Virus record (IMG/VR): IMGVR_UViG_2671180298_000001
Source of the DNA: a virus
Taxonomy: Duplodnaviria; Heunggongvirae; Uroviricota; Caudoviricetes
Direction: 5' to 3' (one strand)
DNA: 6,295 nt
A program made the position numbers and the translations under genes. Below are positions 1-6,295 of this stretch, in pieces. The notes below the pieces were generated by a model. That model had not been told where the DNA came from. It saw only the letters and a list, made by a program, of their open reading frames with translations, and ran no database searches. Every line of letters starts with the position of its first letter. Positions within the stretch are counted from its first letter, which is position 1.

Positions 1-1748
1 CGAATACTGATGCCGGAAGCAGCCTTTTTGGTCACAATCACCGTACAGTCGGTGATATTGCCTGCCCCCTGATTGCCTTTCTGGAAAATCTTAAACTCCA
101 GAGTGACGCTTCCCCTGCCACTCGGCATATCAATAACCGCACTGTAACTACCGGGAATGGCCCCTTTAGTTTCTCTGGATGCGATTAATACGCCGTTTTT
201 GCGAACTTCAAAACCATAACCCGTGTATCTTGTACCTCCCGGGTTATTACCACTTCCCGGATCGCTATACGCTATTCCGTTAAAGATAATGGGCGGAATA
301 ATAATCTGGCGGTCAAAGTTATGATCATCGCTGATGGTGACTGTAACCGTACCGTTTGGTGTTTCCGTGTTACCCCACGTACCGACTTTTTTCGGGAAGG
401 CTTTTGATACAGCTTTAACGAAATCCCCTCTGACCTGGGTCGCCTCCAGCATGCCCTTAATCGTACAGTTCTGGTTAATCGTGACATTGTTGAGCGTTCC
501 TGAGTTCGCATTCACACTACCACTGATATCCGCATTTTTAGCGGTCAGCTTTCCGTCTGATGTCAGGGAAAATACCGGAGGACTGCCACCGCTGGTAATG
601 GTGGGGGCCGTCAGGCGTTTCAGGAACACTTCATTCATGAATATCTGATCGCCCTGACCAACAAACATCGGCTTTGTGTTGCCATTCGCAGGATTAATCA
701 TCGCAATCCTGTCTGCTGCCAGCAGCACCTGACTCTGCATGCCGTCAGGGGTGTTCTCAATACCGGCACCGATACCCGCAATATAAAGGCGTCCGTCCTG
801 CATCTGCTGCAGCTTCACTGCCCACATGCTGTTCAGGTTATTATTTGTATCAACCTGAACCTTCTGTATCTGCTGGATTGCCGCACTCTGGTCTTCCAGT
901 TTCTTATTGACGGTCTGTGTTATTTCATTGCTGACATCCGTTATGGACGTCCTGATTTCAGTCAGGTCAGGCGCAAGCTGACCGTTATCAATCTGCGTCC
1001 ACAGCTCCTGAGCCAGATGGGTTTTCCCTATCTCGCCTTTGAAAAAATCCAGATAGCCTGATGCATCATCACTCGGCTGACCGACAGCCTCCACGAATGC
1101 CGATTTGCCAACGGTGTTCACACTGCGAACGTAAAAATAATAATCATGGCCCGGTTTGATATTGATACTGGCGGCTATCCAGTACAGTGCCGTACCAAGA
1201 TAACGCGCGCTGGTTTCAACCTGCCTGATATCCGCAATCCGTTTTTCCGAGAACCAGAACTCAAACTGTACCGTCGGGTCATAAACCGCAAGATGCGGCG
1301 TGGCGGTTATCTGAAAATAGCCCGGCGTCAGCTCAATCCGCGACGGCGCTGCCGGTGCGGCAATCCGGAACGATACCGACGCCGGATCGCCCTGCTGCCC
1401 CCACGCATTTACTGCCCGGACTGTCAGCCTGTAGTTCCCCAGAGCCAGTTGTGTGAAGCGGTAAGTGGTTTCCGTCGTCCGGGCCGTGCTGACCAGCCGC
1501 TCACGGCCGTCATCCGCTGCCACGGTCAGGCGAAGCAGGAAGCTCACGCCCTTCACCACCTTCGGCGTGTCCCAGCGCGCCAGCACCTGGTATTCCCCGC
1601 TGTCTGCGGTGACTTCTGCGGTCAGGTGCTGCACCGCTGGCGGCGTGACACCATTTACCGTGCCGCTCTGGTCGCCGTCAAAGTGCGCCCCGTTATCCAC
1701 GATGGCCTCTTTTTCCGGTAACCGGGGCAAATGATGAGTATCGTCCTG
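1..1748 (-). pseudogene. J: 3' portion (about 582 codons, running past the window start) of a lambda J-type host specificity / central tail fibre gene; no ATG start and no N-terminal half
   Basis: Minus-strand frame translated by hand is open from the codon after the V stop (1748) to position 1 with no stop. It reads ...[133 protein letters not shown]...[25 protein letters not shown]...[14 protein letters not shown], which matches my memory of the fibronectin-III-like middle region and C-terminal part of lambda gpJ. First in-frame ATG is only at 827..825. The ORF track misses it because there is no stop inside the window. Confidence 0.8.
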
Positions 1749-2492
1749 TTAACCTGCGGCGCTGACAGTCACCGCAGCCACAGCCACAAAATTCCCGTCA
1801 GCGGTCATGCCCACAATGCTGACACTGCCCTGCTTCACGCCTTTCACCGTGGCTACAAGCCCGTTCAGGGTCACCGTGGCAGTCTGTGGATCTGACGAAT
1901 GCACACTGATCGCTTTGTCACTGGCTCCGTCAGGTTTTACTGTAAAGGTCAGCGTGGTGGTTGCTCCCACTTTTACACTGGCAGATGCCGGTGCCACCGT
2001 CAGCCCGGTAACGCTCACTGTTTCAGTGCCTTCCTCTGCCAGATACGGACGCCCCACACCGCTGATTTTCACAGTGCGGGTCATCACGTCTTTTGAGGCA
2101 ATGGTTTTACCCAGTGAACTCAGCCAGCCACGGAAAACATCAACAGTGCCGTTGGGATATTTGATACGAAACGCGCAGACTTCACCGGAGTCGAACAACT
2201 GAACCAGTTTTTTCTGCCCGCTGTCACCCGGACGCCAGGCCAGCGTCGCCGAAGTATCACCGACTGATTTCTGCCCCTGGGTTGTCGTTTTCCAGTCTGC
2301 ATCTTCATCATCGAGATAAGTGTCATCTTCTGCATCAGCGGTCATTTCGCCAGGTTGTAGATCCTTCACCATCGCAAGACGCAACCAGTCAGTGTCCGAC
2401 AAAGGGTTCGCAAACGCATCGCCGTTGCCGGTATACATCCAGAACGTCGTTCCCGCACCTTTCGTTTTTGCCAGTGGATTTGGTGTGGTCAT
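1749..2492 (-). CDS. V: major tail tube protein, lambda gpV-like, with C-terminal Ig-like (Big_2) domain; 247 aa
   Basis: Protein MTTPNPLAKTKGAGTTFWMYTGNGDAFANPLSDTDW...YPNGTVDVFRGW... aligns along its length with remembered lambda gpV (246 aa). Start chosen at ATG 2492..2490, preceded by AAGGAGGTG with about 5 nt spacing; the track ORF (2567) begins 25 codons upstream inside the U gene. Stop TAA 1751..1749. Confidence 0.9.
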   Translation of the reverse strand: MTTPNPLAKTKGAGTTFWMYTGNGDAFANPLSDTDWLRLAMVKDLQPGEMTADAEDDTYLDDEDADWKTTTQGQKSVGDTSATLAWRPGDSGQKKLVQLFDSGEVCAFRIKYPNGTVDVFRGWLSSLGKTIASKDVMTRTVKISGVGRPYLAEEGTETVSVTGLTVAPASASVKVGATTTLTFTVKPDGASDKAISVHSSDPQTATVTLNGLVATVKGVKQGSVSIVGMTADGNFVAVAAVTVSAAG

Positions 2493-2502
2493 TACCACCT
2501 CC

Positions 2503-2916
2503 TTAATTCGTGTACGTGATCTGGTACGTGATTTCCGCCATCGCCCAGGTGGCCATCTCATTATCACGTTGATAGTTAAAACCGAGTGGGATCAGGGTGT
2601 CGATGAGTCCGGAAAGTGCCGGTACATCATTCAGGGCCGGGAAAATGGTGCTCTCCATCCACATATCCAGCTCTGAATCCGGTGCCTGTGCCCGGATGAA
2701 GACAGCAATATGCAGAACAGCCTGCCAGTCATCTTCATCCGTCATTTTTCCGGTGTACTGAGCATCACTCAGCCACACCGCCACGGCAGGCAGTTCCTGC
2801 GCATCAACAAATGCCGGAAGCCCGTCAAAAAACGTGGCGCTGTCTCCACACTGTTCCCGAAGGCGTGCCAGTACGACCTGGCGGATTTGTGTATGTCGAT
2901 TCATCGGGTCAGCCAT
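2503..2916 (-). CDS. U: tail terminator protein, lambda gpU-like (alternative start at 2904 would give 133 aa)
   Basis: ...ATFFDGLPAFVDAQELPAVAVWLSDAQYTG...APDSELDMWMESTIFPALNDVPALSGLIDT...ITYQITY matches remembered lambda gpU (ATFFDGRPAVFDE...PAVAVYLTGAEYTG...PDSELDAWMESRIYP...LTYVITYEM). ATG 2904..2902 overlaps the Z stop as ATGA, as in lambda Z/U; ATG 2916..2914 has GAGG only 2 nt upstream. Start uncertain between the two. Confidence 0.85.
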   Translation of the reverse strand: MADPMNRHTQIRQVVLARLREQCGDSATFFDGLPAFVDAQELPAVAVWLSDAQYTGKMTDEDDWQAVLHIAVFIRAQAPDSELDMWMESTIFPALNDVPALSGLIDTLIPLGFNYQRDNEMATWAMAEITYQITYTN

Positions 2917-3479
2917 AACCTCAGTTGTTGTTTCAGTGCATACCCCAGCTGTTTCGGCATTTCCGCAGCAATGATGCGGTCGCGGGCATCTTCAAATGCC
3001 TGTGTCAGCGGTCCGGACAGAGGGATTTTCACCACATCAATGGGGTAACGATTTTTGCCATCAATACGCCGCATCACATGCCAGCGACCATTCGCCAGTT
3101 GCTGAATAAACGCATCCCGGAAAAGATATTTACCCACCTTCAGCACGCTGCCACGGTACTGCAGTTTTCCACCACGCCGGGTCAGTCTGACCCGGGCGGT
3201 CCCCAGCTTAATGGCAGGCAGATTGCCCCGGTTAACGCGGATCCTGGCCGTCATTTTTCCTGACGGACTGGCTTTAAACACCCGGACACGCTGACGTACC
3301 AGTTTCAGGGGTATCCCTTTCACCTGGTTATCTCCCGCAACGGTATTCCCGGCAACCTGCCGGGTGGCAACCGAGACCGCTTTCTGTGCCACACGGTTTA
3401 TCGCCCATGCGCTGGCCTGTGGCACCATACGGGTATCAAGGCTGTTCAGATTGCGGATGGCATTCTCAAGCCCCTTCAT
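2901..3479 (-). CDS. Z: minor tail protein, lambda gpZ-like (tail completion); 192 aa
   Basis: 192 aa, the same length as lambda gpZ, basic protein, located between the FII-like and U-like genes exactly as in lambda. SD-like AGAGGTG about 5 nt upstream of ATG 3479..3477. Assignment is by position and size more than by remembered sequence. Confidence 0.75.
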   Translation of the reverse strand: MKGLENAIRNLNSLDTRMVPQASAWAINRVAQKAVSVATRQVAGNTVAGDNQVKGIPLKLVRQRVRVFKASPSGKMTARIRVNRGNLPAIKLGTARVRLTRRGGKLQYRGSVLKVGKYLFRDAFIQQLANGRWHVMRRIDGKNRYPIDVVKIPLSGPLTQAFEDARDRIIAAEMPKQLGYALKQQLRLWLTR

Positions 3480-4168: not shown

Positions 4169-6127
4169 TTACGCCGTACATTTCACCAGACCGCGGTGAT
4201 CAACTGGCGCGACACCGGCGTCAATACGCACTTTCGTTGTCACGCCATCCACACTGAAGCCCTCCATCTGATCAATATATGGCGTATCCACACCGTTGAG
4301 ATAAGCCACTTCAATCGTATCGGAGCCTTTTGACGCAGCCAGGTAGAAGGTGGTCTGGCTGTTATCATCAAGACGGGGCTCTGCAATAACGGTCGCAAAA
4401 TCTTTCACCGGGTTAATAATACCGGCGTTAATGTCAGCCCCCTTGACACTTGAGGAGCGAATGACCTGGTTAGCAACAGACTCCATCGCCGTCGGTACCA
4501 GTACGAACGCAGGACGAATATTCAGATGACGCTCCCCCTCTTTCTGAACGCGCATCAACTGGCGGGCTTTATCCAGCGATGCCACGTCCATTGCAGCGCT
4601 CTCCAGTACGTTTGCATGTTTCGCTTTATCGAACAGACTTACATTATCTGTGGAGATTTTCGGGTTAGACGTCAGAATGGCATAAACCAGATCGGCAATA
4701 GTGGATTTCGCCGCACGGCCCAGTTTCATCGGGACATCGGTCAGCATATTCAGATCATCATTGATAATGGCCTGACGGGTGATACTGAACAGCTCGCCAT
4801 AGGTCGCCAGTGCAATAGTGGCCTGTTTATCTCCGGTGGTGACGTATTTATATTCCGCCCCTTCACGCACCTGACGCAGAGCACTGAAGCCCCCCATACC
4901 CACACGATGGGCAATTTTAAAATCAGACAACTGACCTTTCCGCGTCCACTGTTCATAGGTTTCAGGGGCATCTTCCCAGCCCTGCAGAATGGCTTTGTTC
5001 GCAACATCCAGCAGAATATTACCGAAGTCAGACGTACTGTGTGTGAACGCCGCACCGACCATCTGCATCGGGTTATAACTGGAAACCCCAATACCCCGTT
5101 CAGTCAGTGACATACGGGCATATTCACGCAGGGTCATCCCGTTGTAGACATTATCACGTTCGGTTTTTTCAAATCCGGCACGCGCCATCAGCGCCTGGCG
5201 GATCCCGTCCCCCACAAAATTACCGTTTCCGGCATAAATATGAGCCGGGGTATTTTTATTGGATGGCGTGGACTCGCGCCCCATCTCGTTCAACAGCTTT
5301 TCGCGGGCCTGCTCCAGCGAACATTCAGGATCGGCAAGACACTGAGCCTGCAGCGTCTGATAACGCCCGCCAAACATGGCAAACAGATCATTAATACCGT
5401 TTACACGCGCTTTTTGCTCTGCCAGTACCTGCGCACGGATACTGTTTTCATCCACCACGGGTGCTGCTGCCTGCACTGGCGTCCGGGAGGCTGCAGGTTC
5501 ATCATCCTGTACGCGTGGAGCACTGTTGCGTGGCGGAGTAATCATGTTTCGAATGGATTCCGGCATCTTTTTAAATTCCTCTGTACGTTTTGACTGAATA
5601 CATGCCATTGCCTTAACGGCTGGCGTCACCTGATCAGCAAATCCCTGTGCCAGACATTCGGCACCGGACATCCAGGTCTCATCCGCCAGCATGGCAGCAA
5701 TTTCATCGGTGGTTTTCCCGGTTTTCTGTGCATAAGCGGGTAACAGAACCGCCTCAACCTTATCGAGCAGGTCGGCATAGGTGCGCATGTCCTCCGCATC
5801 ACCGCCCGTAAAGCCAAATGGTTTATGAATCATCATGAAGGTGTTTTCCGGCATAATGACCGGGTTTCCCACCATCGCAATGACCGACGCCATTGACGCC
5901 GCCACACCGTCGACATAAACGGTAATGGACGCACCATGTGTTTTCAGCGCATTAAAAATGGCGATGCCTTCAAAGACATCGCCACCCGGTGAATTAATAT
6001 GGAGATTAATGTGGGTGATATCGCCCAGTGCATTCAGATCACTGATAAACTGCTTCGCTGTAACACCCCAGAAACCAATCTCGTCATAAATATAAATATC
6101 CGCGTCACTCTGGTGACCAGCCTGCAT
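4169..6127 (-). CDS. prohead protease (ClpP / S14 family) fused via a scaffold-like linker to an HK97-fold major capsid protein; 652 aa from the chosen start
   Basis: N-terminal part has ClpP hallmarks: IYIYDEIG...INSPGGDV...VDGVAASMASVIAMVG (serine motif, Ser codon 5896..5894) and MMIHKPFGF (histidine, codon 5827..5825). Middle is a low-complexity, helix-prone linker (ENSIRAQVLAEQKARVNG...LEQAREKLLNEMG). C-terminal ~330 aa look like a phage major capsid protein. Start set at ATG 6127..6125 (MQAGHQSDADIYIYDE), 13 nt after the stop of the upstream gene; the track start at 6292 would overlap that gene. Confidence 0.85.
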   Translation of the reverse strand: MQAGHQSDADIYIYDEIGFWGVTAKQFISDLNALGDITHINLHINSPGGDVFEGIAIFNALKTHGASITVYVDGVAASMASVIAMVGNPVIMPENTFMMIHKPFGFTGGDAEDMRTYADLLDKVEAVLLPAYAQKTGKTTDEIAAMLADETWMSGAECLAQGFADQVTPAVKAMACIQSKRTEEFKKMPESIRNMITPPRNSAPRVQDDEPAASRTPVQAAAPVVDENSIRAQVLAEQKARVNGINDLFAMFGGRYQTLQAQCLADPECSLEQAREKLLNEMGRESTPSNKNTPAHIYAGNGNFVGDGIRQALMARAGFEKTERDNVYNGMTLREYARMSLTERGIGVSSYNPMQMVGAAFTHSTSDFGNILLDVANKAILQGWEDAPETYEQWTRKGQLSDFKIAHRVGMGGFSALRQVREGAEYKYVTTGDKQATIALATYGELFSITRQAIINDDLNMLTDVPMKLGRAAKSTIADLVYAILTSNPKISTDNVSLFDKAKHANVLESAAMDVASLDKARQLMRVQKEGERHLNIRPAFVLVPTAMESVANQVIRSSSVKGADINAGIINPVKDFATVIAEPRLDDNSQTTFYLAASKGSDTIEVAYLNGVDTPYIDQMEGFSVDGVTTKVRIDAGVAPVDHRGLVKCTA

Positions 6128-6140
6128 CCTGAACCAGGAA

Positions 6141-6295
6141 TTATTCTTCGGACTGGTCGTCGGTGTGCTGCGGCTCCTGTCGTTTCGTTGCGGCACTGCT
6201 GCCTCCTTTATCACTGGCCGGATCGGTATCAAATACCAGATCCAGCTTGCGGTTTTCATCAATTTCGGCCTTGCGCTGAGAGATCCCCTCATAAT
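6141..6295 (-). CDS. 3' end of upstream gene, probably the portal protein (partial, continues beyond window end)
   Basis: A different minus frame is open from the window edge to TAA at 6143..6141 and reads ...YEGISQRKAEIDENRKLDLVFDTDPASDKGGSSAATKRQEPQHTDDQSEE*, a hydrophilic acidic tail typical of a real C-terminus. The third frame has a stop at 6291..6289. Portal identity is inferred from the conserved portal-protease-capsid gene order only. Confidence 0.5.
   Translation of the reverse strand, partial: YEGISQRKAEIDENRKLDLVFDTDPASDKGGSSAATKRQEPQHTDDQSEE

Follow-up and report, generated by a model that had tools for sequence, protein, structure and literature searches.

The window, by which we mean the whole stretch of 6,295 nt that was analysed, carries head and tail genes related to those of intact E. 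coli prophages. The credible genes are located on the minus strand without exception. Two intact prophages served as references: L002, adjoining prfC in E. coli Res13-Lact-ER01-35 (NZ_CP062901.1), was used for the V side and L003 of E. coli PK6 for the J side. The features are given from the right end of the window to the left; J' denotes the incomplete J gene.

6276..6295, strand not assigned: terminal 20 bp of an element assigned to IS10 (ISVsa5 family), which runs on past the window; the plus strand reads CTGAGAGATCCCCTCATAAT
6141..6275, minus strand: remnant of the portal gene, last 44 codons and stop, collinear with L002 13226-13360, the end of a 502-aa portal CDS
4169..6196, minus strand: fusion of a ClpP-like prohead protease and the major capsid protein, 675 aa, GTG start, intact by comparison with L002
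3759..4082, minus strand: gene of a DUF2190 / Phage_cement_2 head protein, intact, 107 aa, protein identical in L002
3491..3766, minus strand: Gifsy-2-family head-tail joining gene, intact, 91 aa, protein identical in L002 (PF13856 in relatives)
2901..3479, minus strand: homologue of minor tail protein Z, intact, 192 aa, protein identical in L002 (PF06763 in relatives)
2503..2904, minus strand: homologue of tail terminator U, intact, 133 aa, protein identical in L002 (PF06141 in relatives)
1749..2492, minus strand: major tail tube gene V with a C-terminal Big_2 domain (Pfam), intact, 247 aa, stop codon TAA at 1751..1749, protein identical in L002
1721..1748, minus strand: remnant of the V-G spacer with the terminator 5' arm GCCCCGG (1728..1722) and part of the loop, compared base by base with L002
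1719..1720, minus strand: proposed deletion junction with the 2-bp microhomology TA, set by the identity limits of both parents
1698..1711, minus strand: possible, fortuitous ribosome site of J', AAGAGG (1711..1706), a 5-nt spacer and GTG (1700..1698), read from the sequence
1..1720, minus strand: J', 3' half of J, which encodes the tip-attachment protein, with codons 592-1164 of 1165; its final codon and stop lie 4 nt past the window

The six genes from the capsid fusion to V contained no stops and, taken together with the portal remnant, differed from L002 at 3 bases. In the capsid fusion gene internal stops were absent and a single substitution, I18N, was observed. In the public assembly collection the exact fusion protein is indexed in 3,224 blocks and the exact V protein in 13,070. 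V matched the lambda gpV family PF16461 (Phage_TTP_12) over the full profile (E 1.2e-66); the Big_2 domain was found with E 3e-12. The family name DUF2190 / Phage_cement_2 stems from Pfam calls on the genes of relatives. An initial annotation had correctly assigned the V stop and had stated that the head genes look intact. This holds from the capsid gene onward, whereas the portal gene is cut by the IS10 end at 6276.

The joint between V and J

The V side of the window, 6279 to about 1719, was collinear with L002 at an identity of 99.9%. The J side, 1720..1 (1,720 nt), was 100% identical to J of PK6 and of at least 14 other complete genomes. Together with the Pfam assignments reported below, this bore out that the sequence following V is the C-terminal part of J. 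Ungapped V-side identity ended at 1719 and J-side identity began at 1720. Thus, the junction was placed at 1720/1719, inside the interval of about 1650-1748 proposed initially; the comparison with intact prophages that had been suggested for finding the deletion endpoints gave both breakpoints, using L002 and L003. When the V-side sequence was run by megablast against 5,426 complete E. coli genomes, 1,836 records had a query coverage of at least 80%, and all of the best matches that were listed ended at window 1715. Around the joint the sequence was clean on both sides with no mismatches nearby. Because the homology amounts to 99.9-100% identity over kilobases, chance is of no concern. A sharp breakpoint was thus flanked on either side by collinear, near-identical homology to intact relatives, as in a defective prophage.

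In a short reading of the joint the window reads GGTTA followed directly by CCGGAAAAAG, the V parent reads GGTTATCCGGGGC and the J parent CATGTACCGGAAAAAG. In a longer reading the window has CATCATTTGCCCCGGTTA joined to CCGGAAAAAGAGGCC, the V-side parent has CATCATTTGCCCCGGTTATCCGGGGCTTTTTTGCAGG and the J-side parent GTGCAGCATGTACCGGAAAAAGAGGCC. At the joint itself the parents have nothing in common but the dinucleotide TA; across it extends an imperfect match, TA(T)CCGG, in which 6 of 7 bases agree. In J coordinates the joint falls into codon 592 of 1165, where GTA has become a chimeric TTA. The GTA variant of this codon was present in L004, L006, L007, L010 and L012. J had been thought to follow the V stop with no gap; actually, 28-30 nt (about 29) of the normal V-G spacer are kept between the V stop and J'.

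The missing segment corresponds to 17783-25732 in L002, i.e. 7,950 bp. Compared with L002 it comprised the first 591 codons of J and, ahead of them, G, T, the tape measure gene H, M, L, K and I. Hence the genes initially listed as absent between V and J' were the right ones, namely G, T, H, M, L, K and I together with the 5' half of J; the size of the loss had been put at about 9 kb and, measured against the closest intact relative, amounts to 7,950 bp.

In the V parent the spacer contains a hairpin, GCCCCGGTTATCCGGGGC (GCCCCGG-TTAT-CCGGGGC), which is followed by T6 and was detected as an intrinsic terminator. The parent terminator had a folding energy of -16.2 kcal/mol with a z-score of -4.4. 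The exact terminator sequence was present in 10 of 11 loci with an identical V; the eleventh, L011, had the same hairpin with a shorter T-run. The V-side breakpoint is located inside the loop of this hairpin, and the 3' arm and the T-run are deleted. In the window, a terminator was not detected at the joint, and the junction did not fold any better than shuffled sequence. Loss of the V terminator would let transcription continue from V into J'.

Occurrence of the joint and its explanation

Is V followed by J' a natural arrangement? We read 20 contigs which had either an identical V or an identical capsid protein; in 19 of these G directly followed V. In all ten contigs with an identical V the genes G, T, H, M, L, K and I came next, and the J that followed was 1131-1160 aa long. 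Of the ten contigs selected for an identical capsid protein, nine had G called directly after V. The tenth, L020, apparently has a different lesion in the tail module: no genes were called from Z to M and the stretch is about 2.2 kb short. Other J lesions were noted in L015 and L021.

An intact relative in which J starts straight after V, as would be expected if no deletion had occurred, was found neither among the 20 contigs read nor among the 5,426 complete E. coli genomes, none of which contained the V-J' junction by megablast. A megablast against 50,697 phage records likewise returned none that spans the joint. By pattern scans the junction 26-mer was also absent from three further collections, namely one genome for each bacterial species, the JGI metagenomes and IMG/VR. 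Thus, the V-J' junction is known from a single sequence. V and J pieces lay close together in only one of the E. coli records, UMNF18, and there by an independent deletion. In the window J codon 592 comes about 29 nt after the V stop, and G, T, H, M, L, K and I are lacking, i.e. the order is not that of a lambda-like tail module. By these comparisons V-J' is not a natural architecture.

The data very probably reflect one internal deletion of about 7.95 kb, from the V terminator loop to J codon 592, in a lambda-like prophage of the mEp460/Tritos type of E. coli or a close relative. This single event would have placed the 3' half of J directly after the 3' flank of V. Lost with it would have been the genes of two tail chaperones (G and T) and of the tape measure protein (H), further M, L, K and I, and the half of J which encodes the baseplate hub. 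Since the joint shares only 2 bp (TA), the recombination should have been illegitimate and not homologous, presumably RecA-independent illegitimate recombination or replication slippage at a very short homology. Possibly, the terminator hairpin promoted the deletion; that it helped cause it is our conjecture. The two flanks have retained an identity of 99.9-100% to intact relatives; therefore, the deletion appears to be recent and probably strain-specific.

An improbable explanation is a rearrangement without loss, i.e. an illegitimate inversion or translocation within one or between two lambdoid prophages; the genes from G to the J 5' half would then be found elsewhere in the genome, at the reciprocal junction. 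This junction would connect J codons 1-591 with the terminator 3' arm and G, the sequence CCGGGGCTTTTTT being followed by G. E. coli genomes have a median of 3 J-like places each. In addition, J' had zero differences from intact J genes and was 100% identical to J of L003, a prophage with a different head type, compared with 95.7% for J of the nearest V-side relative. Both points count in favor of a rearrangement. However, among prophages with one type of V the J genes are strongly mosaic, and the identity pattern consequently proves little; GTA at codon 592 occurs at the five loci named above. We infer the J of the true parent from such mosaic relatives. Further, V and J' have kept the normal order and orientation of a single prophage, and an inversion at a microhomology of 2 bp is much rarer than a simple deletion.

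Less probable still is an assembly artefact, two genuine prophage regions having been fused by the assembler into a chimera. In E. coli genomes J occurs as a multi-copy repeat, the other end of the window adjoins another repeat, IS10, and the junction was found nowhere else in the collections searched, all of which would fit a misassembly. Against this, misjoins should go through repeats of at least k-mer length and none exists here, the parents sharing 2 bp only, and both flanks are clean up to the joint. This makes a misassembly unlikely.

Reading frame and possible expression of J'

Past the V TAA the frame of V remains open for 582 codons to the end of the window, and J' is in the same frame as V, as had been reported. 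Also correct was that no ATG precedes codon 308 or so: the first in-frame ATG is codon 308 at window 827. Non-ATG starts exist upstream, TTG at 1730 and GTG at 1700, 5 nt past AAGAGG. The initial view of the shared frame as probably coincidental is reasonable. By chance it has a probability of about 1 in 3, and beyond that just nine spacer codons had to be free of stops. We rejected the frame match as a signal of a fusion protein because of this probability, because of the TAA stop and because nothing is conserved.

In Pfam searches J' contained Ig_J, Ig_J_second, Phage_Tail_Tip and Ig_GpJ_C, each over the full profile; the N-terminal hub domains FNIII-A_GpJ and Phage-tail_3 were absent. The full-length J of L003 had all six domains. 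In full-length J, Phage-tail_3 extends to residue 498 and Ig_J begins at 610. The breakpoint is located between these Pfam domains, and therefore the four C-terminal J domains are whole. We regard the intact C-terminal domains as a curiosity, with no sign of selection in the sequences compared. The AAGAGG-GTG bases are internal J sequence in all intact J genes compared. Therefore, this site has not evolved for a J' start, which it might nevertheless provide. With the terminator lost and AAGAGG-N5-GTG in place, a J' of 567 aa could in principle be translated from late transcripts.

An exact look-up in the protein collection returned the 567-aa (GTG start) and 276-aa (ATG start) J' sequences. 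These matches were dismissed as evidence for the junction because they are not diagnostic: entries of similar length (P0007, MQHVPEKE...) start with native J sequence. For the latter reason P0007-type entries are other J truncations or broken contigs. The 577-aa ORF starting with TTG, which would carry junction-specific residues, was absent from the protein collection. Most likely, J' is an N-terminally truncated pseudogene which is in frame with V by chance.

It is very unlikely that late transcription from V into the domain-complete J', which comprises the tip fibre, the receptor-binding domain and two Ig-like domains, fortuitously gives an expressible module, starting at AAGAGG-GTG and furnishing either a free receptor-binding protein or a host-range cassette for recombining lambdoid phages. 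Least probable is that V-TAA-J' has been selected for a function, be it a V-J' fusion made by read-through or a free receptor-binding J' starting at GTG 1700 as a host-range reservoir or receptor decoy. The common frame, four whole domains including the receptor-binding one, AAGAGG and GTG at 1711..1698 and transcription entering J' after loss of the V terminator might be held in its favor. So might the known role of defective prophages as DNA donors to incoming phages (PMC3945230). Yet the arrangement is unique to one sequence, so that the mark of conservation is missing, the frame has its 1-in-3 chance, and AAGAGG-GTG are ordinary internal J bases. TAA is an efficient stop in E. coli, which speaks against read-through. 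A decoy role is implausible: a J without its N-terminal hub half should be unable to join a tail, and J' has no export signal.

Probably a defective lambda-like prophage

In lambda, the initiator for V polymerisation needs G/G-T, H, M, L, K, I and full-length J. With G to I and the N-terminal half of J missing, the element cannot encode its own tail; V, U and Z would be left as orphan tail genes. Accordingly, the initial statement that the prophage cannot build a tail is valid for a self-encoded tail. It goes too far in general because co-resident lambdoid prophages can complement such defects (PMC2669165).

The portal gene at the other end of the window constitutes a second lesion. The 20 nt at 6276-6295 equal the first 20 nt of a 58-nt sequence which we take to be the IS10 end. 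This 58-nt sequence had a 100% match to Tn10 in plasmid R100, directly beside the 3' end of the IS10/ISVsa5 transposase gene. Homology to intact prophages begins only past the IS10 end, 135 nt before the end of the portal gene. By these matches we assign 6276-6295 as an IS10 terminus which cuts the portal gene, either interrupting or truncating it. A joint of IS10 and portal gene was found neither in the complete E. coli genomes nor in IMG/VR. If beyond IS10 the rest of the portal gene follows together with the 9-bp duplication CGCAAGGCC, this would mean a simple IS10 insertion; if terminase and portal are gone there, it would mean an IS10-mediated deletion. IS10 was also considered as the cause of the V-J deletion and rejected: the IS10 end is 4.5 kb away and the V-J joint is devoid of IS sequence.

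The closest known systems are intact prophages of the mEp460/Tritos/HannyBb type such as that in NZ_CP062901.1. They share the gene order and an identity of 99.9% from the 3' end of the portal gene through the first part of the V-G spacer, and V of the named phages of this type is 98-99% identical to that of the window. In these relatives the terminator is followed by G, T, H, M, L, K and I and, at the end, by full-length J (1160-1165 aa), whereas the window lacks 7,950 bp at this point. Phage lambda itself is more distant. Its V belongs to the same tail-tube family, and J' matches four C-terminal domain families of gpJ including the receptor-binding one. In contrast, its head is made up of C, Nu3, D and E where the window has a ClpP-capsid fusion, and the window lacks the tail assembly genes that lambda has from V up to mid-J.

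The prophage at the ssrA site of UMNF18 (NZ_AGTD01000001.1) carries the independent V'-J' deletion mentioned above and likewise is without G to I. Its breakpoints differ, V codon ~137 being joined to J codon ~55 with a 3-bp overlap. There, V is truncated, nearly all of J is kept and further truncations are present. Lambdoid prophages commonly have morphogenesis genes hit by deletions and IS insertions, as is well documented; the pool of O157 Sakai is the classic account (PMC2669165). The Sp prophages of Sakai are similarly disabled by deletions or IS elements in portal, head, tail or host-range genes (PMC2669165); they are other prophages with other lesions than the element in the window. Some of the defective Sakai prophages are still packaged and transferred with the help of co-resident prophages (PMC2669165).

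Taken by its V and J families the element should be classed as a defective member of the lambda-like prophages, and we consider its state as ordinary prophage decay. The IS10 in the portal gene indicates that the same element is decaying at a second place too. The deletion opens no new biological question. It would add one clean case of deletion by illegitimate recombination, with a terminator hairpin loop and a homology of 2 bp at its ends. For annotation, the element should be recorded as a defective prophage with J' as a pseudogene, not as 'host specificity protein J', and with V, U and Z as orphan tail genes. The junction, apparently strain-specific, could serve as a lineage marker.

A second lesion at the portal gene

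The right end of the window holds two adjoining features:

6141-6275, portal gene remnant, last 135 nt of the gene
6276-6295, IS10 element, terminal 20 bp, at the window end

With the IS10 end directly next to its final 135 nt, the portal gene is interrupted or truncated. This damage is a second lesion of the same prophage, independent of the V-J' deletion. The 9 bp adjoining the IS10 end, CGCAAGGCC, are a loose match to the consensus target of IS10, NGCTNAGCN.

An ungapped comparison over about 4.56 kb, starting in the portal remnant and ending at the junction, showed only three base differences, at 6144, 6198 and 6200, between the window and the V-side intact relative L002, a prophage of E. 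coli Res13-Lact-ER01-35. All three cluster where the 3' end of the portal gene overlaps the 5' end of the capsid fusion gene, and one of them results in I18N in the capsid fusion protein.

A possible start for J'

A candidate start site is located 20 nt downstream of the junction:

1698-1711 (-), AAGAGG, 5-nt spacer, GTG

Judged from the sequence, this site may allow translation of a 567-aa J'. The predicted product contains four whole domains, one of which is the receptor-binding domain. An identical 567-aa sequence is present in the protein collection (three Logan contigs, the longest of 22 kb).

Module swapping and tail damage in related prophages

The closest V-side and J-side relatives, L002 and L003 (E. 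coli PK6), differ in their head modules: L002 carries a ClpP-capsid fusion, L003 an S49 protease together with lambda-like D and E genes. Judged by their right-hand ends, both occupy one chromosomal insertion site, the DinI-like gene/prfC interval. The pair thus illustrates module swapping among prophages which use a single attachment site.

An independent V'-J' deletion was identified in E. coli UMNF18 (L001, 8110-11852), in a related prophage adjoining ssrA. There, V breaks off near codon 137 and J takes over from about codon 55; the two segments overlap by 3 bp at the joint. Capsid and tail genes of this prophage are truncated as well.

Other tail-module lesions were present in three of ten prophages, a sample chosen by identical capsid protein. 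In L020 (13296-16060) the Z-M interval is devoid of called genes and about 2.2 kb short; in L021 (20661-21645) J is cut at 269 aa with an IS200/IS605-type Y1 transposase alongside; and L015 (20601-21705) retains J only as a 789-aa C-terminal ORF. Damage to the tail module looks common in this prophage family.
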